Assembly: GCA_964467655.1 (NCBI GenBank)
Contig: CAYXSN010000004.1
Location: forward strand, 19,906 to 83,905
Source: an uncultured Candidatus Saccharimonadales bacterium
Lineage (GTDB): Bacteria > Patescibacteriota > Saccharimonadia > UBA4664
Reading direction: 5' to 3'
DNA length: 64,000 bases
Shown: positions 3,270 through 58,360 of the stretch, piece by piece
How the letters are laid out: each line of letters begins with the position of its first letter
Numbering within the stretch: position 1 is the stretch's first letter
The notes under the pieces: model-generated
The model's database searches: none
What the model was told of the DNA's origin: nothing
The model's input: only the letters and a program-made list of their open reading frames with translations
Translations under genes and position numbers: made by a program

Positions 3270-4490
3270 GTGAATCGTAACTGGAGAACCGTGATGGTTA
3301 CCCTGGGCTTGGCGATACTCGCCACTCTGGGCATGATGGCGCCGGCATCAGCTGGCACCATCATGAACAATGCCGCAGCAGCCCTCAAGACCCAGGATTT
3401 GTACGTCGATCCCGGGGCGGCTATTCAGCCGTCTGCTGCCGATATGGCAGCCATCGACCAACTCCTGGCCAACACGCTCTACCCCACCAAGGTGGCCATT
3501 CTGCCGGGCAGCGTCAAGAACGAGCTGACCAATGGTAGTGCCGACTGGCTGGCGGCCGATGTGGCCAACCAGACCCATGTGGGCGCCACCTATGCGGTAC
3601 TGGCGGGCACCCCGAGTGGCAAGTGGGCCTTTCGGGCTGTCGACACCAGCAACCATCTGGGTGAACGGGTCAAGAGTTTGGCGAACTCCGCTTATCAGCG
3701 GAATTCATCCAACCCCTTGACTGCTTTGCGGGCATTCTTGGTGTCGCTGCCCCAGAAGGCGGCGCCGGCAGCTACCCAGCCGAATGTTGTGCCACCAGTG
3801 CAACAGCCGGCTCAACCTCAGAACCAGCCTCAGGCCCAGCAGCCGGCCAAGTCCGGCGGTGGCCACGGTTGGCTGTGGCTCGTTCTGATTGTCGTGGTCA
3901 TTGGACTAGTGGGTGGCTACTTACTCTTGAGGCTGTTCGGATCTCACGAGGATGACTCGGGAGATGTGGATTTCCGGCCAGGCTCCAGTCCGACACCCCC
4001 TGGACCGTTGTTCGACACCGCCTTCGAGCCTCCACCGGCTACTGCTTATGGTTCGTATGAACCCGAGCAGACTACGGCGGCCGGCATGATACCGACTCCG
4101 ACTCCGGCTACCCACTACCGCACGCTGCCGCGGAGTACGCGATCGGGCGGCGGCGGCGATGTCCCGTCGCGGGCGCCGCATCGTGATAGCTATCACGGGC
4201 ACCGTCGCGATGGTCGGGGTGGCTACGGCGACCCGGGTACCGGTTCGTACGTACCTCCTGTGGTCGTGACCCCGAACCCACAGGGCGATCAGCCGCATAC
4301 CTATCAGGCACCCGATCCTGAACCTGTTCGCCAGGTGACGGCCAGTGACTCTGGTGGCGGTGGCGACACAGGTAACAGCTCGAGCGGCTTCTTTGACTCG
4401 AGTAGTGGGGGCTGGGGCTCCGATTCGGGCTCCAGTTCTGATCCGTCACCGGCCTCCGACCAGAATTCCGGCGGCGGCGGCGACCTGTAA
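3270..4490 (+). CDS. membrane-anchored protein with signal peptide, extracytoplasmic domain, one TM helix and a long Gly/Ser/Pro/Asp-rich low-complexity tail
   Basis: GTG start preceded by a ggaagga RBS. Signal peptide, then a TM segment (WLWLVLIVVVIGLVGGYLLL), then about 200 aa of low-complexity sequence (SGGGGD repeats). Confidence 0.6.
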   Translation: MNRNWRTVMVTLGLAILATLGMMAPASAGTIMNNAAAALKTQDLYVDPGAAIQPSAADMAAIDQLLANTLYPTKVAILPGSVKNELTNGSADWLAADVANQTHVGATYAVLAGTPSGKWAFRAVDTSNHLGERVKSLANSAYQRNSSNPLTALRAFLVSLPQKAAPAATQPNVVPPVQQPAQPQNQPQAQQPAKSGGGHGWLWLVLIVVVIGLVGGYLLLRLFGSHEDDSGDVDFRPGSSPTPPGPLFDTAFEPPPATAYGSYEPEQTTAAGMIPTPTPATHYRTLPRSTRSGGGGDVPSRAPHRDSYHGHRRDGRGGYGDPGTGSYVPPVVVTPNPQGDQPHTYQAPDPEPVRQVTASDSGGGGDTGNSSSGFFDSSSGGWGSDSGSSSDPSPASDQNSGGGGDL

Positions 4491-4501
4491 CACCCTCCGG
4501 G

Positions 4502-4550
4502 TGGGACCTGGCCTTTTGGCCTGGTCCCACCCGGTTGTTTATTTATACTC
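4502..4550 (+). terminator. intrinsic terminator hairpin ccgggtgggacc...ggtcccacccgg followed by ttgtttatttat
   Basis: 12-bp stem and a T-rich tract, 12 nt after the stop of the 3270..4490 gene. Confidence 0.65.
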
Positions 4551-4578
4551 AATATCCTCAAGTAGCCACCACGTAGAA

Positions 4579-4608
4579 CGCCCAGATCCCCCTCAAGGGA
4601 TCCGGGCG
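4579..4608 (+). repeat. repeat family R1, copy 2 (cgcccagatccccctcaagggatccgggcg)
   Basis: Differs from the 2639..2668 copy at one base. Same palindromic hairpin. Confidence 0.7.
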
Positions 4609-4915
4609 TTGTGTTACACCGTCCGGGGGTTTTGCCCCGACCGTTTCGGCTTTGGAGGAACTTGGGCAGTCGAACCGCCCTTGTTCTCTACCGCCGGCAC
4701 TTCCGGCCGGGCGTCGGGCCGATGTGGACCGGGATCGCCGGTCCAGGGATTTCCACACATCGTGAGCCTCCCAAATGTTGGGTGTGGGGTGGATTTAGCA
4801 TTTTTTATTATATAACTTTATCTAGTTCTTGTCCATATAGACATTTCAGGCCTGTATGGTATCGTCGTATTTGTCCAAGATTGATCGATCCCCCTGCACC
4901 CCAGAAAGGCAGATT

Positions 4916-5557
4916 ATGACTGAGCATCCGCTCATGAGCCCGCCTGAGCCTGGGCCAAAGATCCAGCGCCTCAGTCAACTACCAGATGGGACGGTTCGAC
5001 TATCCCTCGAACGGGCATTGAAGGCCGCACCGGTTTTGTTTGGCCACATGTCGGACACGCCGGATCTGGATACCGTCGCTCTTGGCATCTTTGATCGTCC
5101 GGCTGGCGACCTGCCCCCGGGTTGTGCCCGCGACCGGGCATGCCCGTATGACGACACCGGTATCCATAGCCGGTCGGTCATGCTGCCGTTGCAAGTGGCC
5201 AGCCATGTAGGCGCTCGGGCAACCGACTCGACTGAAGGCAGGCTCAATCCCGAGACTATCAGGTACATCCAGGCTCATTCAGCGACGTATTTTGCGTCAT
5301 CAAACTGGCTGACCCACCAGCGACGCGAGGCCCGGCCCGGTGATACTCGTTCCTATGGTGCAGTTGTCATCAGAGTACGGGTCGGTAATCGGGCATTGAG
5401 CTTCACTGTCGCTGTCAGCAGTGCGGCCCCACCCCACCGGGACCAAGAACTGGCCTATCTGGTGGGCAATGCCGTTGTTGCCGACCTCACAGCTAGCGAA
5501 CTGATCGTGCCCATATTGCCTGAATCCCCTACCTTTGTGCTGCGGCCGCCGTTCTGA
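4916..5557 (+). CDS. hypothetical protein
   Basis: The ORF is 4856..5557. ATG 4916 (MTEHPLMS) is the likelier start. It is followed by a hairpin terminator at about 5600..5635. Confidence 0.45.
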   Translation: MTEHPLMSPPEPGPKIQRLSQLPDGTVRLSLERALKAAPVLFGHMSDTPDLDTVALGIFDRPAGDLPPGCARDRACPYDDTGIHSRSVMLPLQVASHVGARATDSTEGRLNPETIRYIQAHSATYFASSNWLTHQRREARPGDTRSYGAVVIRVRVGNRALSFTVAVSSAAPPHRDQELAYLVGNAVVADLTASELIVPILPESPTFVLRPPF

Positions 5558-24198: not shown

Positions 24199-25431
24199 TT
24201 GTTCTTTGGCATGGTTTCCTGTGTGATTATCAATCCTCTGGAGGCGGTCGTGCACCAAGCCGGTACCCACCGCCCTCTGTGGGCGATTCGCATCATGCTC
24301 GTGTTCGCTGATCTGCGACTGACAGGCTTCATCGAAGTTACCTATTTGCTGAAGCTTGGCTTCAAACCGAGCCAGATTGGCCTGATTGCGGCTTTACCTT
24401 TCGCTGCGCACTTGCTGGCTAATATTCCGGCAGGCTGGTGGAGCGACCGTTTCCAGCGGCATCGGCGCATCGTTATTACGACTGGGCTCGCTTGCATGAC
24501 GATGGCCCTGGCCGGCTTCGGCTGGCTGCCTGGTGCGGTATTTTGGCCGGCGGCCATTCTGACAGTCCTTCGCGGCGTCGGCTACGCCCTCTACTACAGC
24601 ACAAATGACGCGTTTACCCTGCTGCATTACGGTGCGCGACAGGACTCGGCGGCAGAGGCTCAACGTGAGCGTTCACGCTCGTGGGGGTATACCATGACGA
24701 TCCAGTGCGTAGGCGTGATGGGTATCCTCTTGGTGCTCGCATTGGCGCCCCAGACGGCCTTGCGCATGTTCTATTTCGTCCAGGCGGCCGCCCTGATGAT
24801 TGCCACATTGGCATCGCTGCGATTGCCCAGACCCGTCATGTTGGCACGACGCCGCGACCAGAGTGTGCGGCTCATGCTGCGCAGTCTAGGTGATGGCTGG
24901 TGGTATATTGGGCACTCGATAGCGACCATGGCCTTTACCAATAGCATGGCTACTATTACCCAATTGCATTTGTCGTTGCTGGGCCGGACACCACATGATC
25001 TGCTGCTCTTTTCGGTCGGGTTCTACTCCGTGGCAGCCTTGTGCGCTTTCTTTGTGCACCCGCTTGAGCGCACACTTGGCGCGGCTGGTGCCGTCATGCT
25101 GGCGGCATGGCTGTGCGCGATAACCGTCGCTTGGTTCGGATTGGCTAGTCCGTCGGTCATCCAATACGGTACTTTCCTTTTTGGCCTGCTGTTTGGAGTG
25201 CGCAACGGGATCGATAAAACCCGGATGATGCAGTTGAGTCAATGGCCGGCGCTGTTGATGTCAATTCAAGTAGCTGCCTCAATGGGCCTGACCAGCGTGC
25301 TGATCGCCGTGAGCGGCCGGATTACAGAAGCCTTTGGCATTCAATGGGTCTTGCTACTCGTGACGCTTGTGCTTGTTCTGCCAGCCGTTTTATGCGGCTG
25401 GCACGCCCGGCATACTTCGAGAGGATGGTAA
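24199..25431 (+). CDS. MFS transporter
   Basis: About 12 TM helices. MFS loop motif GWWSDRFQRHRR. The start is uncertain (ATG 24199 or GTG 24250 after a ggagg RBS). Confidence 0.7.
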   Translation: MFFGMVSCVIINPLEAVVHQAGTHRPLWAIRIMLVFADLRLTGFIEVTYLLKLGFKPSQIGLIAALPFAAHLLANIPAGWWSDRFQRHRRIVITTGLACMTMALAGFGWLPGAVFWPAAILTVLRGVGYALYYSTNDAFTLLHYGARQDSAAEAQRERSRSWGYTMTIQCVGVMGILLVLALAPQTALRMFYFVQAAALMIATLASLRLPRPVMLARRRDQSVRLMLRSLGDGWWYIGHSIATMAFTNSMATITQLHLSLLGRTPHDLLLFSVGFYSVAALCAFFVHPLERTLGAAGAVMLAAWLCAITVAWFGLASPSVIQYGTFLFGLLFGVRNGIDKTRMMQLSQWPALLMSIQVAASMGLTSVLIAVSGRITEAFGIQWVLLLVTLVLVLPAVLCGWHARHTSRGW

Positions 25432-25922
25432 CGATGATGTTTCTTCCAACGATCGTTCAAAACCCGCTACACGCAGGCGCCCAGCTAGATGTCACCACAC
25501 TGAACCAGCGCGAGTGGGATCTGGTGGCGGCCCTGACCGGCGCTGCCCAAACGACCCAGCGCCACCCACTACTGGTAGCGCCCTACCTTCGGGTAGAGAT
25601 GTATCAGGCGGCACTCAGGTCTTTGTCACTTGACGACGAGGGCACAATGGAAGTGCTTGGTGAACTGGCCGACCTGATCAGGCTCATGAAGCAGTTGCCT
25701 CAAGCCGATGACGCCCGGGCGTTGACCCATTGGTTGGTGGCCCAAGAACTGTGGCCGGTTACTACTGAGCTGCGGCCAGTGGATTATCCGCTCGTCTTGG
25801 CCATGGCAGCCTATTGGGCGGCCGACCAGTTGAGGATCTCGGTCACTTTGGCGCAGGCGCTGACTACTTGTTCACCGGCAGCACGGCCTGGCAACCATCT
25901 ACTGACCGCAATCGCTGTTTGA
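25425..25922 (+). CDS. hypothetical protein
   Basis: ATG 25425 with a gagagga RBS. It overlaps the MFS stop by 7 nt. 165 aa. Confidence 0.5.
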   Translation: MVTMMFLPTIVQNPLHAGAQLDVTTLNQREWDLVAALTGAAQTTQRHPLLVAPYLRVEMYQAALRSLSLDDEGTMEVLGELADLIRLMKQLPQADDARALTHWLVAQELWPVTTELRPVDYPLVLAMAAYWAADQLRISVTLAQALTTCSPAARPGNHLLTAIAV

Positions 25923-48987: not shown

Positions 48988-49095
48988 TACGGTAATGGTA
49001 GCACAAACCGGACCTAGCTAACGATCTGGAGGGCGCTGTGCCAGTTGGTGCCGAGAGCGCTTTCCCGGTTTTATGCTATAATTAGTATAGTAAGT

Positions 49096-49389
49096 ATGAC
49101 CTGCCTCACCACCCTCAAATTACTCGGCGACTACTGGACACTGCGGTTGCTTGATGCTCTGCGCGATCAGACGCTGCGCTATTGCCAACTCCAGCGCGCG
49201 GTCGATAATCTCAACCCCGTAACCTTGACGAACCGGCTGAAGCGGCTCGAAGAGGCCGGGCTCGTGGAGCGCCATGATGATACCACCGACAAAACGGCTG
49301 TTATCTATCAGCTGACCGAACGAGGCCGACAAGCCCTACCGGTAATTGATGCTCTGGACCAGTTTGCAGCAGCAGGCCCTAAGGGTTAA
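49096..49389 (+). CDS. HxlR-family winged-HTH transcriptional regulator
   Basis: ATG 49096. CLTTLKLLGDYWTLRLLDAL...YCQLQRAV...TLTNRLKRLEEAGLV. Confidence 0.75.
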   Translation: MTCLTTLKLLGDYWTLRLLDALRDQTLRYCQLQRAVDNLNPVTLTNRLKRLEEAGLVERHDDTTDKTAVIYQLTERGRQALPVIDALDQFAAAGPKG

Positions 49390-49595
49390 GTCGTCGTTGC
49401 TGCTGCGTTTGCCACACTTTTTAGCCGTTTGGCGGTTGTATACCAAGTTGGCTCACTTTATGGCAGTTGTAGGGAATAATCGGCACTTTTTCCCGATTAT
49501 TCCCTACGAACCCAATACAAGACTGGGAAAAAGTTAGTCGTCAGAACGGTCAGGAACGCATATACTCATAAAACTTATGAGCGAGAGTAGTACAT

Positions 49596-49763
49596 ATGCG
49601 TAAACTAGTGATCCTGACTTTTGTATCTTTAGACGGCGTCATGCAGGCACCGGGTGGCGAGGGTGAAGATCCCTCAGGCGGGTTTGGCCTGGAAGGTTGG
49701 TCGATGAGCTACAACGATGAGGCATCCGGTACCATGAAATGTGGCGCTATCGAGCCTTTTTGA
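49596..49763 (+). pseudogene. truncated N-terminal fragment of a RibD_C / dihydrofolate-reductase-family gene
   Basis: MRKLVILTFVSLDGVMQAPGGEGEDPSGGFGLEGW is the hallmark N-terminus of about 185-aa RibD_C proteins. The ORF stops after 55 codons, where the convergent 49747..50685 gene begins. Confidence 0.5.
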
Positions 49764-50685
49764 GGACATGCGCCAAACGAAACAGCTCGACACCTGTGAC
49801 TTCGCCCAGATATGATTGTTCGACATGGGCTAGCCCGGCCGAGAGACAGATCTGAATATTCATGGGTCGGCCAATTGCCCGCTGGGCAGCGCGAATGTCG
49901 GCCATTAGAGGCCGAGCCACTGTGACCACAAACCGCTGGATGCTGGTGTTGTCGGCCCTGTCGACCCAATCGGGAAACATGACTACGATATTTTGGCCAT
50001 CACCACGCAGGCTGGTGATACTGCCACCGGCGGCGGCGGCAAGCGTTGCCACCTGCGGGCCAAAGGTGTTGAGAAAATGGCGCAAATGACCGTAGCGTTG
50101 TCGAGCTAACTGACTGGAGCCAGTGATGTCCCACATGATGACGAAGGCATTGGGAGTCGTGGGGGTATTCAACATGAGGGCATCAGCTAGTGATGGTAGC
50201 TTGGCGCTGGCGCGTAAGAGATCCTTGGTGGCCTGGTTGATGCTCGCTGCTTGATCGGCACTTAGATCGCGCAGTTGTGTTACTGAAGGTAATGGCAGTG
50301 TTTGGGTTGTATCAAATGCTAGCTGGATGATAGCCGATGGCAGCGCCGGTTGACCGACTGCCAAGCCATAGACCACATGGCCGCCAGGGTTGAGTCGGCT
50401 GGGTTGATAATCGGTTGTTGGATGCCTGAACATATCACCCAACGTCGTGGCCCGCAGATCAACCCGGCGACCCAGTATACGGCGCCGGGTAAAAGCTAAT
50501 TGCCGGGTAGGGCGACCTGTGGCATTCACCGCCGCCACAGCCCCGGCGGAGTCGGCGTGATACTGGTCTGGCACGAATAAGACCGCTCCATTGAAAGCCG
50601 GAAACTCAGCCAACGCATCCACAAGCGGCGCTATGGCATGAGTTGCAGTCTGAGTTGCTGAGTGAAGTTCTGCCGGTGGATTCAT
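49747..50685 (-). CDS. protein with a C-terminal class-III nucleotidyl-cyclase-homology-like domain. The N-terminal domain is unknown
   Basis: AFVIMWDITGSS...LRGDGQNIVVMF resembles the paired Asp metal-binding segments of class III cyclases. Tentative. Confidence 0.4.
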   Translation of the reverse strand: MNPPAELHSATQTATHAIAPLVDALAEFPAFNGAVLFVPDQYHADSAGAVAAVNATGRPTRQLAFTRRRILGRRVDLRATTLGDMFRHPTTDYQPSRLNPGGHVVYGLAVGQPALPSAIIQLAFDTTQTLPLPSVTQLRDLSADQAASINQATKDLLRASAKLPSLADALMLNTPTTPNAFVIMWDITGSSQLARQRYGHLRHFLNTFGPQVATLAAAAGGSITSLRGDGQNIVVMFPDWVDRADNTSIQRFVVTVARPLMADIRAAQRAIGRPMNIQICLSAGLAHVEQSYLGEVTGVELFRLAHVLKKAR

Positions 50686-51071
50686 GGCTTCTTGATTTGA
50701 GGAATCGCGCTCTGGGGTACCTGGCGCACCTTGATGGTACTGGCACCTTGGATGTAGAGCTTCACGAGCCGATGGAGCCCGTCGAGAATCACCCAGCGCC
50801 CGCGCCAGAACATGATATCAATGGGGTGTGATGTGTCGGCAGCCATGGTACGGTCGTATTCGGCGCTGAAGTCATGCGGATGATCGATGACGTCCCGGGC
50901 TTTGAGGTCGTAGAATCCTCCAGGTTTTGACCAAAATGGAATTTCAAAATGCCAGGTGAGTTCGGTTATGGGGATTACTACCACCGGCACATCAAGCTGC
51001 CAGACTTTTTGGACGTCCCAGCTGAAGTCGAAGCCAACTTCTTGGATAATGGGAGGGAATGCGCGCTTCAT
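50682..51071 (-). CDS. ParB/sulfiredoxin-superfamily (ParBc-like) domain protein
   Basis: PIDIMFWRGRWVILDGLHRLVKLYIQGASTIKVRQV matches the ParB-like nuclease/Srx core (viDGhHRl.A....G...i.v). Confidence 0.5.
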   Translation of the reverse strand: MKRAFPPIIQEVGFDFSWDVQKVWQLDVPVVVIPITELTWHFEIPFWSKPGGFYDLKARDVIDHPHDFSAEYDRTMAADTSHPIDIMFWRGRWVILDGLHRLVKLYIQGASTIKVRQVPQSAIPQIKKP

Positions 51072-51500
51072 ACTTATAGAGACTACCTAAAATATGATGG
51101 TGGTACTAGTTATCATTTGTCCCCCTGTACTTGCACATCGTCTCCCTTACCGCGCAAATAGTGCTCATATTCGATATCTCGGTCAATTGCAGTTTGTAAT
51201 GCACCGCGAATAACCTGGGTGCGGCTACGGCCTTTGATGAACTGCGCCCAGTCAAGGTAGTTGCGCTCGGCACCGTTGAGTACTAAGTGGAAGCGGCTTT
51301 TATCGGTGCTGTTTTTGATAGCGCAAAGCCAGTGTAATATAAGTAATTATCACGATATGTATGTAACTCGGCGGTCGACGAGGTAAAGTAGACTTTCATG
51401 TGGCGTAGAGTACGTGATGAGCAAATAATGTGCAAGGTGTGCATACCAACTTCTACCAAGCATCAGTACCATGGCCTTAGTACTCATAAGGAGCCCGTTC

Positions 51501-51917
51501 ATGAAGACTATCAATTTAGCCGGTTGCATTATGTTAGATGATCAGCAGCGCATTCTCATGCTGCACCGCAACACGCCAAAGCGGACACAGTGGGAAATTC
51601 CGGGCGGGAAGATTGAAGCCGGCGAATCCGCCGAGGCGGCGGCCCAGCGTGAAGTGAGAGAAGAGCTTGGCCTGGAGGTAATCATTAGCCGCGAAATTGG
51701 TTCGCGGTCATTTGTGGAAGATGACCATACCATGGGCTACACCTGGTTTCTGGCTGATGTGTCGGCGGGTGTTCCCCAAGTAATGGAGCCGGATCTGTAT
51801 GACGAGCTACGCTACTTGAGTATGGCTGATTTGCGCGAGTTGCGGCCAGAATTATCTGCCAATACGGTGAATTTTGTAACCGAGCTTGAGGCGGGGCGAG
51901 TCAAGCTGACAGCGTAA
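51501..51917 (+). CDS. Nudix hydrolase
   Basis: ATG 51501 with a taaggag RBS. Nudix box GGKIEAGESAEAAAQREVREELGL. Confidence 0.8.
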   Translation: MKTINLAGCIMLDDQQRILMLHRNTPKRTQWEIPGGKIEAGESAEAAAQREVREELGLEVIISREIGSRSFVEDDHTMGYTWFLADVSAGVPQVMEPDLYDELRYLSMADLRELRPELSANTVNFVTELEAGRVKLTA

Positions 51918-52038: not shown

Positions 52039-52593
52039 ATGGCACCACAAGTCCCCCAACTACCCGGCCTGGACATCCCGGTTGTATTTGCAAACGGCAC
52101 TGATGTCTACGACCGGTTGGCCCAATCGTACCGGCGGCATGCCAAGGGCTACTTTTTGTTGGCGCCGTCGGGGGCGGGCAAAACCTATTTTGTTGACCAT
52201 CAGGTTTTGCCCGACTGGATTGACGGCGATGTGTTGTGGCAGGCCGTGGGCGCTCTACCCGACGGCGAGTGGTGGAACTTGCCCCTGGAGCGGATTATGG
52301 AGCTTGAAGCCCGCTGCGATCTGATTACGCAAGAAGCCAGGCGGTTGGGGTTTTGGGTACTGGGTGGATCAAATACCTGGCTCCAGCCTGACGCTGTGGT
52401 ACTGCCGCACTGGCAGACCCAAAAGTACCGGATGGGTTTACGACTCAAGCACAATTATGACGGCGGGTTGGCCCCCGACCAAACCGGCAAAGCTCTCACG
52501 CAGCGCCGATGGTTCAGCCGCTGGACCAAGCAAGGCGTACCCAAATTTACCAGCATCGAGGCAGCGGCGGCTAGCTTAGCCGCGCGGATGTAA
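52039..52593 (+). CDS. P-loop NTPase (kinase-like), hypothetical
   Basis: Walker A APSGAGKT. Confidence 0.45.
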   Translation: MAPQVPQLPGLDIPVVFANGTDVYDRLAQSYRRHAKGYFLLAPSGAGKTYFVDHQVLPDWIDGDVLWQAVGALPDGEWWNLPLERIMELEARCDLITQEARRLGFWVLGGSNTWLQPDAVVLPHWQTQKYRMGLRLKHNYDGGLAPDQTGKALTQRRWFSRWTKQGVPKFTSIEAAAASLAARM

Positions 52594-53538: not shown

Positions 53539-53940
53539 CTACTCCAGATACCCAAGCTTCCGAAACAGCTTCTCGCTCGGCGGCACATGCTCGTAATCGG
53601 GCAGATCCTTGATGTCCACCCACTTGAGCTCCTCGTTGGGGTTGACCGGATGGGGCTCGCCGCCGGCCAGCTCGCACATGGCATCTAGATAGATGAAGCG
53701 CTTTTGCTCGCCGTCGTGATCGTTTTTGACGTCTTCATCCCAGCCAAGGCCTTGCGTGATGCGGACGGTCATGTTCCAGCGGGCCTGGAGCTCGCGGTTG
53801 AGCATGTCGACGACGGTGCCCTCGCCTTCGAGCCGGCCGCCAAACAGCCCCCACGGTTTGTCGTAGGGGTTGCGGGCCGGGTCAAACTTGCGGCGGGGCG
53901 GGGCATATGAATACCCCGCCTCTTTGCGCCGACCTACGCT
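53539..53940 (-). pseudogene. Nudix-like ORF lacking a canonical start for its motif-bearing N-terminus
   Basis: The reading frame is open from the in-frame TGA at 53941..53943. The degenerate Nudix box GGRLEGEGTVVDMLNREL lies upstream of the only ATG (53805). No ATG/GTG/TTG occurs between the upstream stop and that ATG. Confidence 0.35.
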
Positions 53941-53949
53941 TCAGCCGCT

Positions 53950-54786
53950 CTAATTGTAAACGTAGTTGATCGTTACTTTTGGATCGTAGTGCCAGCACCA
54001 GCCAAATGACTTTTGGAGCCCGATCAAGCCATTTGTATACGCATCTGCACCCGGCAGTGACTGCCCCGGCAAAGCCTCTACTACCGGTTCTGCGATGGCT
54101 GCCGTTTGCTCAAACCCAAGCGGGAACACCACCGTGGCGGCGAGCTTAGCGGCGCCACTCGGTACAAAGCTCAGCAACGGGGCGTACATTACGAGCTGGT
54201 ACGCCTTAGGGTTACCGGCCTGCGGCAAGAGCTTTTGACTCAGGTGAATCCGCACAACGTGCTGGCCTGCCGGAATGGCTAGATCGGCAATCTTAAAGTG
54301 TTTGGCTAGCTCATGCAGGGCGGCATCGGGATGCTGCCCGTCAAGCGCGATGCCGGCCTTTGCGAGTACGGGCTGCAGCAGCGGTTCGTCGTGTTTTGTG
54401 ATACGGCGAAAGTTGGCAACTACATCAAATTTATCGTCGGTTGCCGAAACGACCCGCGCAAAGGCCCGAGTGCCCGCCTCAACATCCGCATGTACTACGA
54501 GCCGGTAAACTTGCTCTGTTGGCGCGTTCACAAGTGCAGTGATAGTTGCGTTCGCAACATCATAGCACTCGCTTGGGTTGAAGTTGCGCAACGGCGCAAC
54601 GCTTTCGACATCGATATTGATGCCCTGCGAAAGAATTGGTAAATCGAGCGTGATTGGTTGATTACCCACGGTAACCTCCTGTGTTAAGCTGGAGGTACGG
54701 TGCACAGACGCACCTCCAATCGCCAGGCTTGCATCGGGATCCAAACGACAACAAGCCTGGCGAATTTGTAAATATGAGCATGCCAA
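53950..54786 (-). CDS. hypothetical protein
   Basis: 278-aa ORF. TAG at 53950 and an in-frame TGA 9 nt later. Confidence 0.45.
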   Translation of the reverse strand: MACSYLQIRQACCRLDPDASLAIGGASVHRTSSLTQEVTVGNQPITLDLPILSQGINIDVESVAPLRNFNPSECYDVANATITALVNAPTEQVYRLVVHADVEAGTRAFARVVSATDDKFDVVANFRRITKHDEPLLQPVLAKAGIALDGQHPDAALHELAKHFKIADLAIPAGQHVVRIHLSQKLLPQAGNPKAYQLVMYAPLLSFVPSGAAKLAATVVFPLGFEQTAAIAEPVVEALPGQSLPGADAYTNGLIGLQKSFGWCWHYDPKVTINYVYN

Positions 54787-54874
54787 AGGTCGACGCTTCC
54801 TATCGTAGCCGTTTTCAAATCTTGGTGCAACTGTTTTATGGCTTAAACAGAAATAGGGTTTTTCTTATTTCTAT

Positions 54875-54904
54875 TTGACATGCTAAACAGAAATAAGTTA
54901 AAAT
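54875..54904 (+). promoter_or_regulatory. predicted promoter TTGACA-N18-TAAAAT for fic, with a 'taaacagaaata' direct repeat (x2 at about 54845 and 54886)
   Basis: Seen directly in the AT-rich divergent intergenic region. Confidence 0.45.
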
Positions 54905-54910
54905 CAACAC

Positions 54911-56059
54911 ATGATTAACTCAAAAGAATATGTCCGAGGCTCAATCCGGAAGTACTTTGCTCATCAAGATGCAGAGTATTTCTGTTTTGTGCCCCCAACC
55001 GTTAATAAGGAATTTATATTAACGAATCGCCTCGCAGAGCACACCGAGGAGGCAATGCGCCGCTTAGGAGAGTTAAATGCGTATTCGTCTTTTGTGCCTG
55101 ACGTTGATTACTTCATTCGCATGCATATTCGTAAAGAGGCGGTTCAATCATCTCGGATTGAGGGAACATATACAGGCATTGATGATGCTGTATTGTCCGA
55201 GGAGGATGTTTCTCCAGAAAAACGTAATGATTGGCGAGAAGTTCAAAATTATATTCGTGCTCTCGATCATTCTACGCATCGGCTCGACCAGCTTCCTCTT
55301 GCGATGCGCTTGTTAAATGAAACTCACAAAATTTTATTGGAAGGTGCACGCGGAGACGGTAAAACGCCGGGTGAAATCCGTACAAAACAGAACTGGATTG
55401 GTGGCGCAACAATCCAATCGGCAATATTTGTTCCGCCTCATGCCAATTTACTTTCGGAGGCGCTCAGTGATCTGGAAGCATTTTGGCATAATAGAACTAT
55501 AGCTATGCCCAAATTAATTCGCATTGCAGTTACACATTACCAGTTTGAGACAATTCACCCCTACGCGGATGGAAACGGTCGCATCGGTAGATTATTGATC
55601 ATGCTGCAAATGATGAATTACGGATTGCTCGACAAGCCCACCTTATATATGTCGGATTTTTTTGAAAAACATCGGCAAAACTATTACGGCGCCTTAATGG
55701 AAGTTCGCGCTAACCAGGACTTAGACCATTGGCTGGCCTTCTTTCTAGATGGGGTTATTGAGTCGTCAACGTCGGCTAAGCAAAAATTCGAAAAAATTAT
55801 GGAGCTAAGAAATAATTACACTGAACGGATGATGAAATTGGGGCGGCGCGCAGGAAAGGCGAATAAACTTATAAATTCGCTTTATAGCAAGCCTGTGACT
55901 AGTGCCTCGGAAGCGGCGAGTTTGCTCGAAATATCATTTTCTAACACGAATGTTCTGCTACGTGATTTAGTAAAAGAAAATATACTTAAAGAAATTACAG
56001 GATTCTCGCGAAATCGGATTTTTGTGCTCGATGAGTATATGCAGATCTTTAGGGGCTAA
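54911..56059 (+). CDS. fic: Fic (Fido) family protein, class II (N-terminal inhibitory SxxxEG helix)
   Basis: HPYADGNGRIGR Fic motif. SSRIEG inhibitory motif. Strongly AT-rich compared with its neighbours. Confidence 0.85.
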   Translation: MINSKEYVRGSIRKYFAHQDAEYFCFVPPTVNKEFILTNRLAEHTEEAMRRLGELNAYSSFVPDVDYFIRMHIRKEAVQSSRIEGTYTGIDDAVLSEEDVSPEKRNDWREVQNYIRALDHSTHRLDQLPLAMRLLNETHKILLEGARGDGKTPGEIRTKQNWIGGATIQSAIFVPPHANLLSEALSDLEAFWHNRTIAMPKLIRIAVTHYQFETIHPYADGNGRIGRLLIMLQMMNYGLLDKPTLYMSDFFEKHRQNYYGALMEVRANQDLDHWLAFFLDGVIESSTSAKQKFEKIMELRNNYTERMMKLGRRAGKANKLINSLYSKPVTSASEAASLLEISFSNTNVLLRDLVKENILKEITGFSRNRIFVLDEYMQIFRG

Positions 56060-56131
56060 TGTCTTTGCGATGTTTCCTCACGGATGCATCAGCAATTACT
56101 ATGCGCTCTAGCTACTCAGCCGTTTTCCTAC

Positions 56132-58360
56132 TCACAAATACTCCGCGATCAGCGCCTTTTTGCTCTGTACGAGCTCGGCCGGGGTGCCTTCGAACATGAT
56201 CTGGCCGCCGGCGTTGCCGCCTTCGGGGCCGAGGTCGATGATCCAGTCCGCCTGGCGGATCACTTCTTGGTTGTGCTCGATGGTAATCACCGAGTTGCCG
56301 GCGTCTACCAGCCGGTTGATGATGGTGTGCAGGTGGGTGATGTCCGACATGTGCAGGCCGGTGGTGGGCTCGTCGAGCACGTAGATACTCCCCTGTTTGT
56401 GGAGCTCGCTGGCCAGCTTGATGCGCTGGCATTCGCCGCCGGAGAGTGAGCTTAAGGGCTGGCCGAGGCTGAGGTAATCGAGGCCGACGTCCGAGAGAGC
56501 TTGGAGCTTGTGGGCGATGTCTTTGATGTTGAAGAATTCGATGGCCTGGGCGACGGTGAGGTCGAGCACTTCGGTGATGGATTTGCCCTGATATTTGTAT
56601 TCCAGGACTTCGGGCTTGAAGCGCTTGCCCTCGCAGATATCGCAGGGCAGTTTGGCGTCGTCGAGGAAGGCCAGGTCGGTGGTCACAAAGCCCGCGCCTT
56701 TGCAGTTGTCGCAGGCGCCTTTAGAATTAAAGCTAAACAGTGCCACGTCGGCTTTGTTGGCCGTAGCGAAGGCTTTTCGAATAACATCCATAATCCCCGT
56801 GTACGTCGCGGGGTTGGAACGGGAGGATACACCAATGGGAGACTGATCGACCACGATGGCCTCGGGATGCTGCTTGAGGAAGACGTGGTTGATGAGGCTG
56901 GACTTGCCCGAGCCGGCCACGCCAGTGATGACGGTGAAGACGCCGGCGGGAATATTGACGTTGACGTGCTTGAGGTTATTGATGTGGGCGTCGGTGATGG
57001 GTAGTTGGCCGGTGGCGGGGCGGGGGTTTTCTTTGATGGGCAGGTGCGATTTGAGGTGGGTGCCGGTGAGGGTGTCGGCTCCCAGGAGTTCGGCGTAGGT
57101 GCCTTCAAAGACGATCTGTCCGCCGTTTGAGCCGGCTTTGGGGCCAACGTCGATGATGTGGTCGGCAGCCTGGATGACGTCGGGGTCGTGCTCTACCACA
57201 ATGACCGTGTTGCCGCGGTCGCGGAGGCGCTGGAGCAGTTCGTTGAGGCGGTGGACGTCTCTGGGGTGCAGGCCGACGCTGGGCTCATCAAAGATGTACA
57301 TGACGTCTACCAGTGAACCGTTGAGGTGCTTCACCATCTTGACACGCTGACTTTCGCCGCCGGACAGCGTGTCGGTGGGGCGGTCGAGGCTGAGGTAGCC
57401 CAGGCCGATATCGACGAGGTTGGTGAGGCGGTCGTGGAGGGTTCCCGTGATGGCCTTGGCTTCGGGCGACTTGATAGACTTGACCACTTCTAACAGTTGG
57501 TCGACCTGCATACTCGAAAGCTCGGCGATGTTGTGGCCTTCGACTTTTACGCCGAGCGCCTGTTGGCTGAGGCGGGCGCCGTGGCAGGTGGGGCACTTGC
57601 CCATGGTGATGAACGGTTCGATTTGCTTCTGGGTGCGTTCGCTCATGGTTTTGAGGTCGCGCAGGATGTACTTTTTGACGAAGGTATTTTCGAAGCCTTC
57701 GTAGGACAGATTGATGCCGTTGAACTTTACTTTGGTAGGCTCGGCGTGCAAGAACTCGTCCATCTCGGTGGCGGTAAAATCTTTGAGCGGCTTGGCGACG
57801 TTGACGCCGGCGGCCTTCATGACACCAAAGCCCCAGAAGTTGTCGCCGGAGTAGCCGGGCAGCTTGATGGCACCGTCTTCGATGGACAACGCGCGATCAA
57901 GCGCGGCATCGAGGTCGAGGGTCATTTGGCGGCCCATGCCGTTGCAGGCTGGACACATGCCGGCCGGGTCGTTGAATGAGAACATATTGGCGTAGCCGAT
58001 TTTGGGTGTGCCGACGCGGGAGAACATCAGGCGCATGGCGGTGGCAATGTCTGTCACGGTGCCGACGGTGGAGTGTGATCCCCCACCCAGCGGTTTTTGG
58101 TCGACGATGACGGCCATGGACAGGTTGGCGATGGAGTCGGCAGCCGGCTGCGTAAGGTGCGGCAGGAAGTTGCGCACAAACATGCTGAAGTTCTCGTTGA
58201 GCAAGCGCTGAGCTTCGGCGGCCACGGTATCAAATACCAGGCTGGATTTGCCCGAGCCGGACACGCCGGTGAAGACGGTGATTTGGCGCTTAGGGATGCG
58301 CACCGAGACGTTTTTGAGATTATTCTCGCGCGCACCTTTGATTTCGATATATTCCGGCAT
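56132..58360 (-). CDS. class II UvrA paralog (UvrA2-like ABC ATPase lacking the UvrB-binding domain)
   Basis: 742 aa. Collinear with UvrA (MPEYIEIKGARENNLKN...GVSGSGKSSL; two ABC modules; Zn-finger CxxC pairs). The roughly 150-aa segment between LMFSRVG and FSFNDPAGMCPACNG that forms the UvrB-binding domain in UvrA is absent. Strong RBS gggagg. Confidence 0.8.
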   Translation of the reverse strand: MPEYIEIKGARENNLKNVSVRIPKRQITVFTGVSGSGKSSLVFDTVAAEAQRLLNENFSMFVRNFLPHLTQPAADSIANLSMAVIVDQKPLGGGSHSTVGTVTDIATAMRLMFSRVGTPKIGYANMFSFNDPAGMCPACNGMGRQMTLDLDAALDRALSIEDGAIKLPGYSGDNFWGFGVMKAAGVNVAKPLKDFTATEMDEFLHAEPTKVKFNGINLSYEGFENTFVKKYILRDLKTMSERTQKQIEPFITMGKCPTCHGARLSQQALGVKVEGHNIAELSSMQVDQLLEVVKSIKSPEAKAITGTLHDRLTNLVDIGLGYLSLDRPTDTLSGGESQRVKMVKHLNGSLVDVMYIFDEPSVGLHPRDVHRLNELLQRLRDRGNTVIVVEHDPDVIQAADHIIDVGPKAGSNGGQIVFEGTYAELLGADTLTGTHLKSHLPIKENPRPATGQLPITDAHINNLKHVNVNIPAGVFTVITGVAGSGKSSLINHVFLKQHPEAIVVDQSPIGVSSRSNPATYTGIMDVIRKAFATANKADVALFSFNSKGACDNCKGAGFVTTDLAFLDDAKLPCDICEGKRFKPEVLEYKYQGKSITEVLDLTVAQAIEFFNIKDIAHKLQALSDVGLDYLSLGQPLSSLSGGECQRIKLASELHKQGSIYVLDEPTTGLHMSDITHLHTIINRLVDAGNSVITIEHNQEVIRQADWIIDLGPEGGNAGGQIMFEGTPAELVQSKKALIAEYL

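Follow-up and report, generated by a model that had tools for sequence, protein, structure and literature searches.

Does a pair of overlapping genes on the minus strand of an uncultured Candidatus Saccharimonadales genome form a functional unit, or do two unrelated genes lie side by side there? The genes are situated in a 64,000-nucleotide stretch of contig CAYXSN010000004.1, hereafter the window. Gene A specifies a small protein with the predicted fold of the ParB/sulfiredoxin (Srx) superfamily, while the product of gene B carries a predicted class III nucleotidyl cyclase-homology domain. A preliminary description, made from the sequence alone, had taken the two to be translationally coupled, had proposed that they constitute an undescribed system of the defence or signalling type, and had attributed the truncation of an adjacent RibD_C-family gene to their insertion. 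The answer reached here, with a probability of roughly 0.7, is that they are two unrelated genes which are now adjacent in one population of Saccharimonadales, a group belonging to the candidate phyla radiation (CPR), and not a conserved system.

Conservation of the gene pair

Relatives of gene A were sought in 185,579 species genomes. A total of 164 were confirmed, and the best 80 loci, from CPR bacteria and DPANN archaea, were examined over 4 kb on either side of the gene. Profile searches revealed a relative of gene B at none of these 80 loci, the best score being that of a short open reading frame (ORF) of 88 codons (E=0.008). Gene A, for its part, was absent from all 12 of the other distinct contexts in which gene B occurs. 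The relatives of gene B at 57%, 56%, 40% and 39% identity, and the more distant ones, have no gene A alongside: the first (P0002) is preceded by a GNAT acetyltransferase gene and the second (P0003) by an unrelated 119 amino acid (aa) ORF. The relatives on P0126 (40%) and P0134 have other neighbours again, and a DUF1697 gene is found among the neighbours elsewhere. The genes surrounding gene A are not conserved either, the largest neighbour cluster, SecA, being represented at 7 of the 80 loci. A link between gene A and NUDIX hydrolases was considered from their adjacency in the window; NUDIX genes occur at 5 of the 80 loci, in mixed positions, and the link was judged unsupported, without a formal test.

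The A–B arrangement is restricted to the window and six contigs from other samples (L089–L094), which are identical to it over both genes except for the deletion of one codon (L093) and one substitution (L094); the junction between the genes is unchanged in all six. Because the copies are identical bar these two changes, a ratio of nonsynonymous to synonymous substitution rates (dN/dS) could not be calculated within this population. Since the two genes are not co-conserved, their interpretation as a two-gene system fails, and with it the central proposal of the preliminary description.

Three considerations weigh against treating the genes as unrelated. The survey of co-occurrence took in 4–6 kb around each gene and not whole genomes. 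The two ORFs and their ATGA overlap are as first described, and an overlap combined with a shared strand is operon-like, so that the two may have come to work together recently in this lineage. In addition the neighbourhood is nucleotide-flavoured and patchy, with a NUDIX hydrolase, a P-loop protein, a NUDIX fragment and a Fic gene of low guanine plus cytosine (GC) content, and resembles a variable island. The overlap itself suggests, as a feature of the sequence, that genes A and B are co-transcribed in this strain; it is not evidence of a functional link, because it is not conserved elsewhere.

The alternative that had been envisaged is a new signalling or antiphage module, in which the cyclase would make a nucleotide signal and the ParB/Srx protein would serve as its partner or effector. 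Besides the shared strand and the overlap, it finds some encouragement in the patchy surroundings, with the low-GC Fic gene and several gene fragments, and in the structural relatives of gene A in jumbo phages together with a match to phrog_17560, a family of unknown function (E=1.6e-11). Gene B moreover has weak matches to the PADLOC models of the Pycsar cyclase PycC: the window protein scores E=1.3e-3, and of the 94 family members six reach E<=0.01 with the best PycC model, the strongest at E=3e-5. The similarity in sequence is distant and extends over the first Asp-bearing strand; it is accompanied by a structural match to the Pycsar cUMP synthase 7r65 (Foldseek E=4.3e-4). At this locus PADLOC gave only these sub-threshold PycC matches. 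The pairing of cyclase and effector that characterises Pycsar was not found, there being no adjoining TIR, transmembrane or other known effector gene: the neighbour of gene B is the ParB/Srx gene in the window, and frr and tsf, GNAT, DUF1697 or other genes elsewhere. To the lack of co-conservation must be added that the usual site of gene B is a housekeeping slot between frr and tsf, that only one population is known to carry the pair, its sequence hardly varying there, and that in one nearly identical contig (P0001) the 3' end of gene A is fused by a frameshift onto gene B. The co-occurrence data have largely refuted the module, which we regard as very improbable, and follow-up on a false lead is thereby spared. 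Scans of the IMG/VR viral contigs for genes A and B revealed no close relatives of either.

Contig P0001 is 1554 bp long and 99% identical to the window. Its called protein opens with ILDGLHRLVKLYIQGA of gene A before the frame shifts into gene B. Either the fusion is an error of assembly, or it indicates that this sister strain can dispense with gene A. A weak score to the gene B profile was also recorded at two further loci, for a 61-codon stretch on the plus strand past a Na+/H+ exchanger gene (L001, 9079–9261; L003, 4148–4330). The E-value was 1.1e-4 or 8e-3 according to the profile used, and the stretch may be what is left of a second copy.

Both proteins belong to families without Pfam coverage, the folds of which can now be named. 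The Pfam models that the preliminary description named for checking them, ParBc (PF02195) and Guanylate_cyc (PF00211), gave no match: neither window protein has any Pfam match at E<=1, and at E<=0.1 PF02195 matches none of 52 members of the gene A family and PF00211 none of 94 members of the gene B family. NCBIfam and PHROGs likewise gave nothing above threshold for either gene. The resemblances to ParB/Srx proteins and to cyclases were seen only when family profiles were compared with the sequences in the PDB and when predicted structures were used.

The gene A and gene B families

A search of a collection of 5.8 billion proteins returned 368 homologs of gene A, almost all of 127–139 aa, from Saccharibacteria, Microgenomates, Paceibacterota, Gracilibacteria, Berkelbacteria and DPANN archaea; a few carry the NCBI name ParB-like nuclease domain-containing protein. 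The mean column identity is 66% in a sample of 52 sequences, in all of which D97, G98, L99, H100 and R101 are invariant. These residues lie within the segment VILDGLHRL (residues 94–102), in which a ParB/Srx core had been perceived at the outset. When compared with PDB sequences the family profile matched SbnI, a serine kinase of the ParB/Srx fold, with E=3.6e-3 and with DGLHR aligned to DGVHR; SbnI was also a sub-threshold match in the profile libraries (E=0.015). The AlphaFold2 model (predicted local distance difference test score, pLDDT, 90.3) is occupied entirely by one domain. Among its Foldseek matches listed from the PDB nearly all are ParB/Srx proteins, with E-values from 3.8e-3, and they include SbnI, sulfiredoxin, Noc, PadC, ParB, KorB, Osa and SerK. 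When viral models were searched, small proteins named ParB/Sulfiredoxin domain-containing, from giant viruses and several jumbo phages, were among the best matches, the top match having an E-value of 9.4e-7, a query-based template modelling score (TMq) of 0.68 and a root-mean-square deviation (rmsd) of 2.9 over 123 columns. As judged from the model, gene A is a member of the ParB/Srx superfamily at fold level, and to that extent the first assignment has been borne out.

The predicted core, consisting of two strands, a helix and a further strand, is common to SbnI, SerK, sulfiredoxin, PadC and the viral ParB/Sulfiredoxin proteins. As in SbnI, a DGxHR-type motif stands at the start of the core helix, while in size and single-domain build gene A resembles the proteins of Pseudomonas phages EL (119 aa) and Psa21. 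Unlike SbnI and SerK it lacks their C-terminal domain. With a single domain and 129 aa it has neither the helix-turn-helix nor the dimerisation domain of ParB, Noc and KorB, and so does not qualify as a canonical ParB; it is also not a sulfiredoxin, because the catalytic Cys is missing: the motif reads DGLHR rather than FGGCHR, and no Cys is present among the invariant or near-invariant columns of the 52 sequences. Nor does it match the ParBc family of Pfam. A feature of its own is the unique, aromatic-rich N-terminal region of 80 residues (GFDFSWD, WHF..PFW). In its distribution, too, which is centred on CPR bacteria and DPANN archaea and involves no conserved neighbour, it is unlike the stand-alone ParB/Srx relatives.

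By analogy with SbnI/SerK, sulfiredoxin and ParB, the gene A product most likely binds a nucleoside triphosphate (NTP) through DGLHR, and it most likely acts alone. The family is patchy across CPR bacteria and DPANN archaea and has no fixed gene partner; it represents a very highly conserved small ParB/Srx protein of ~128–130 aa common to both groups.

Two further observations concern this family. Sub-threshold matches to the Pfam family PF23719 (Antitoxin VapB-like) were obtained for 14 of the 52 members, the best at E=0.003 and with 14–15 bits against a cut-off of 27; they cover the ParB/Srx core (residues ~86–117; profile positions 61–92 of 97). Two homologs (L014 and L034) are located on different contigs of one Saccharibacteria metagenome-assembled genome (SRP173033_co2_102), and the family can therefore be multi-copy.

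Gene B proved to be the more interesting family: its protein is divergent and class III cyclase-like, its N-terminal domain is new, and its place on the chromosome is conserved. A word-indexed protein search yielded four relatives, the same kind of search with a broader profile likewise 4 proteins, and a locus search with a narrow alignment 3 metagenome loci. An exhaustive HMMER search of 1.84 billion representatives returned 124 relatives, 100 of them at E<=1e-10, most of which are full-length proteins of ~300–380 aa. In an alignment of 94 sequences the mean column identity is 22%. Against this background D186 (in WD186, codon 50128–50130) is conserved in 95% and D229 (in GD229, codon 49999–50001) in 97% of the members, and the two Asp with their flanking Gly in 91–97%. 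The other residues of the catalytic domain that stand out are G228, G230, N179, W185, S190, P175 and P178, with N179, W185 and S190 at >=90%. The family signature can be written TPNA-x4-WD-x3-ST ... GDGQN. The conserved residues of the N-terminal part are S96 (96%), Q121 (93%), N99, H103, R73 and R74.

The AlphaFold2 model of gene B (pLDDT 97.4; predicted template modelling score, pTM, 0.92) is divided into an N-terminal alpha/beta domain, a linker formed by a long helix (residues 135–160) and a C-terminal palm domain. Its predicted helices (H) and strands (E) are, in the N-terminal domain, H5–25, E31–39, E46–54, H60–70, E73–76, H81–87, E103–112 and E115–125, and in the palm domain E180–187, H190–196, H198–218, E221–226, E230–236, H246–275, E279–286 and H299–311. 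The unassigned domain that had been noticed ahead of the cyclase part is thus real, with a length of ~165 aa. Residues 1–165 match nothing in Pfam or among PDB sequences and have no sequence relatives outside the family, and the order of their secondary-structure elements suggests that the domain may be GAF/PAS-like.

Compared with the sequences in the PDB, the family profile identified class III adenylyl cyclases only, including Rv1625c/Cya and Ma1120 (E=2e-3). The match spans exactly both Asp strands and aligns D186 and D229 with the two Asp of the Rv1625c-type enzymes, in agreement with the resemblance noted previously. A Foldseek search of the PDB gave 66 matches at E<=1e-3, and among the 50 listed, 49 are catalytic domains of class III or Pycsar cyclases, whereas none is a GGDEF domain. 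They include Cya2, Ma1120, CyaB, Rv1900c, mammalian adenylyl cyclase, soluble guanylyl cyclase and bPAC/OaPAC; the comparison with 1ybu gave a target-based template modelling score (TMt) of 0.57 and an rmsd of 3.7 over 134 columns. The longest alignment, of 391 columns, is with a phytochrome-linked cyclase and runs through the sensor, linker and catalytic parts, and the alignments with 6fht, bPAC and soluble guanylyl cyclase also cross the linker. On the strength of the model and these matches the C-terminal part of gene B is a class III cyclase-homology domain, and regulated class III cyclases are usually built in the predicted order of sensor domain, helix and catalytic domain. The structural comparison has in this way supported the fold that had been proposed for each protein.

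With the class III cyclases that possess N-terminal sensors (Rv1625c, Rv1900c, Ma1120, Cya2, CyaB, bPAC/OaPAC and the phytochrome-linked enzymes) gene B thus shares the predicted catalytic fold, the layout, and both metal-binding Asp in equivalent strands, the first in strand 1 and the second in the hairpin of strands 2 and 3. It differs from them in its signature and its N-terminal domain, in the failure of all 94 members to match Guanylate_cyc, in the brevity of the catalytic domain (~140 aa, against 160–200 aa for the chains matched), and in showing neither an evident conserved Asn/Arg pair nor an evident purine-specifying Lys.

The near-invariance of the Asp and their flanking Gly, in a family of 22% identity, is the main argument that metal and nucleotide chemistry has been retained. 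The protein would act as a homodimer. Its N-terminal alpha/beta domain would bind a small ligand, the long helix would relay this binding to the palm domain, and there D186 and D229 would hold two divalent metal ions for nucleotidyl transfer or cyclisation on an NTP. A homodimeric, ligand-regulated nucleotidyl cyclase or transferase using two-metal catalysis is the reading that we tentatively prefer, at somewhat less than even odds. Two features tell against it. The last helix (295–312) contains no residue conserved in >=60% of the 94 sequences, which is why the canonical Asn/Arg transition-state pair of class III enzymes is not evident, and gene B of the window and the two relatives nearest to it fall short of the family median (344 aa) by ~30 aa, the window protein at its C-terminus.

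The principal alternative, which we consider unlikely, is a catalytically dead pseudo-cyclase whose palm has been kept for ligand binding or protein scaffolding. The failure of a conserved Asn/Arg pair to stand out in the last helix, the short catalytic domain and the lack of any Guanylate_cyc match are as such a protein would have them; it accounts poorly for metal-binding Asp and flanking Gly conserved so far above the family mean, and for the retention of N179, W185 and S190 around the first Asp. A further possibility is that gene B is not of class III type but is a diguanylate cyclase of GGDEF type, or some other nucleotidyltransferase with a palm domain. Its GDGQN hairpin loosely recalls GGDEF, and there are marginal Pfam scores (GGDEF in one member, E=0.074; DUF3095 in two, E=0.012). 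This reading is highly improbable given the class III cyclases returned by both the structural and the profile comparisons and a first motif, WD-x3-ST, that fits the DIxGFT strand of cyclases. Searches of the literature on DUF3095 and on adenylate cyclase in Saccharibacteria yielded nothing bearing on the gene B family.

In 8 of the 13 distinct contexts of gene B (P0004, L095, L097, P0128, P0150, P0221, P0140 and P0160) the order is rpsB-tsf-[gene B, opposite strand]-frr-uppS-rseP. Many bacteria carry pyrH between tsf and frr. The genes for ribosome recycling factor (RRF, frr) and elongation factor Ts (EF-Ts, tsf) at these loci specify proteins that are only 57–75% identical to those of L099, and the synteny therefore spans considerable divergence. 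This placement is typical of a chromosomal gene belonging to one lineage, and not of a mobile or defence island. The sole taxonomic label in the family so far is that of one member, recorded as a hypothetical protein from Candidatus Saccharimonadales. Family members situated between tsf and frr, in the orientation opposite to theirs, were seen in L006–L008, L095, L097, L099, L102–L104, L106 and L107, with the homolog at ~4001–5050 in most of these loci.

The analysis has established the ORFs, their folds and conserved residues, the absence of co-conservation and the synteny with frr and tsf. That gene A binds nucleotides, that gene B senses a ligand, dimerises and is catalytically active, and that the two are co-transcribed in this strain are inferences. 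If active, gene B would be a candidate second-messenger enzyme in ultra-small symbiotic bacteria. A more far-reaching proposal, speculative and on balance unlikely, would draw these points together: the gene B family would be an undescribed, regulated cyclase or nucleotidyltransferase with a new ligand-binding domain and a minimal class III palm lacking the Asn/Arg pair, holding its place between tsf and frr in opposite orientation and making a second messenger specific to these episymbiotic bacteria; in the lineage of the window, a relocated copy might recently have acquired a ParB/Srx protein that binds nucleotides as its partner.

The RibD_C remnant and the surrounding region

The coordinates of the two genes, their parts and the adjoining features are collected in Table 1.

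Table 1. Features of the gene A/gene B locus (positions are those of the window).
Feature	Position	Strand	Basis or remark
Gene A	50682..51071	minus	129 aa; ORF list
Gene B	49747..50685	minus	312 aa; ORF list
ATGA overlap of gene A stop and gene B start	50682..50685	minus	TCAT on the plus strand
DGLHR motif, gene A residues 97–101	50769..50783	minus	ParB/Srx-type phosphate-binding signature
Gene B N-terminal alpha/beta domain and long linker helix, residues 1–165	50191..50685	minus	AlphaFold2 model
Gene B C-terminal class III cyclase-homology (palm) domain, residues 172–312	49750..50172	minus	Profile and Foldseek
RibD_C/dihydrofolate reductase (DHFR)-family 5' remnant	49596..49763	plus	55 codons; converges on gene B, overlapping its last 17 nt
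HxlR-family regulator	49045..49389	plus	Context gene, outside the pair; Pfam HxlR E=2.1e-16; upstream of the RibD_C remnant
NUDIX hydrolase	51471..51917	plus	Context gene, outside the pair; Pfam NUDIX E=1.6e-21; divergent from gene A

The truncated RibD_C-family gene beside gene B is a genuine remnant. Its residues 1–45 are 64% identical to residues 1–45 of a 208-aa dihydrofolate reductase family protein of Caballeronia (tblastn E=5e-14), and it matches Pfam RibD_C with E=0.044 at profile positions 2–29 of 197. The homology corresponds to nucleotides 49596–49730 and ends 16 nt before the stop codon of gene B; the ORF closes with 10 codons and a stop codon that lie in this 16-nt gap and in the antisense of the gene B 3' end. 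Of a complete RibD_C/DHFR domain (~180–210 aa) only these 45 residues are present. The gene had been called decapitated, and this has to be corrected to truncated at the 3' end, since the head was kept and the tail lost. As the ATG and a promoter-like site at 49538–49566 are retained, the break looks recent.

Whether the pair caused the break is less certain. The pair, or a block ending at the stop codon of gene B, may have been inserted into an intact RibD_C gene as a recent acquisition, a possibility that we view with some doubt. It is in keeping with the undecayed state of the remnant and its promoter-like site, with the end of homology just short of the gene B stop codon, and with the lower-GC, gene-free 399 bp on the other side of gene A. 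A 3' remainder of RibD_C was, however, sought beside the pair, including beyond gene A, and none was found, so that the picture is not that of a simple insertion. Flanking repeats around the pair did not exceed chance-level matches, and the GC content of genes A and B (0.54–0.58 in composition windows) is that of their surroundings. A deletion with one endpoint adjoining gene B explains the data equally well. Both an insertion with loss of flanking DNA and a simple deletion are possible at this site.

Two observations touch on the RibD_C gene and its borders. Between the HxlR gene and the remnant, at 49469–49507, there is a perfect 15-bp inverted repeat (GTAGGGAATAATCGG, 9 nt, CCGATTATTCCCTAC), which could be an operator or the hairpin of a T-less terminator. 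Within the plus-strand ORF 25242..25922, nucleotides 25584–25907 show weak tblastn similarity to the C-terminal half of the DHFR-family probe (31% over 109 aa, E=8.6e-5); the 226-aa product of this ORF had no Pfam match.

Genes A and NUDIX are separated by 399 bp (51072–51470) in which no gene was called. The composition windows at 50800–51599 have a GC content of 0.465–0.48, against 0.54–0.60 on both sides. Scans with Rfam and for promoters and terminators over 48.5–52.5 kb revealed nothing relevant. On the minus strand of the gap a 77-codon stop-to-stop frame (...RFHLVLNGAERNYLDWAQFIKGRSRTQVIRGALQTAI...) without a usable start codon resembles a ribbon-helix-helix remnant. A pseudogene of this type had been suspected upstream of gene A (~51110–51340, minus strand), and Pfam gave it no support.

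Beyond the NUDIX gene the plus strand carries an adjoining 184-aa ORF (52039–52593) with a Walker A-like sequence, APSGAGKT, and no match in Pfam or NCBIfam. An 88-aa ORF on the minus strand (53539–53805) corresponds to the C-terminal half only of a NUDIX protein (profile positions 74–133 of 134, E=0.014), making it a second truncated gene nearby; it lies directly upstream of a 314-aa ORF without a family match. The Fic/Fic_N gene (54911..56059, plus strand) was probably acquired horizontally, because it is located in a patch (54600–56200) with a GC content of 0.40–0.44 as against 0.55–0.62 around it. It is adjoined on the minus strand (56132..58360) by a gene for a 742-aa double ABC/SMC_N-type ATPase with a CXXCXGXG-like insert.

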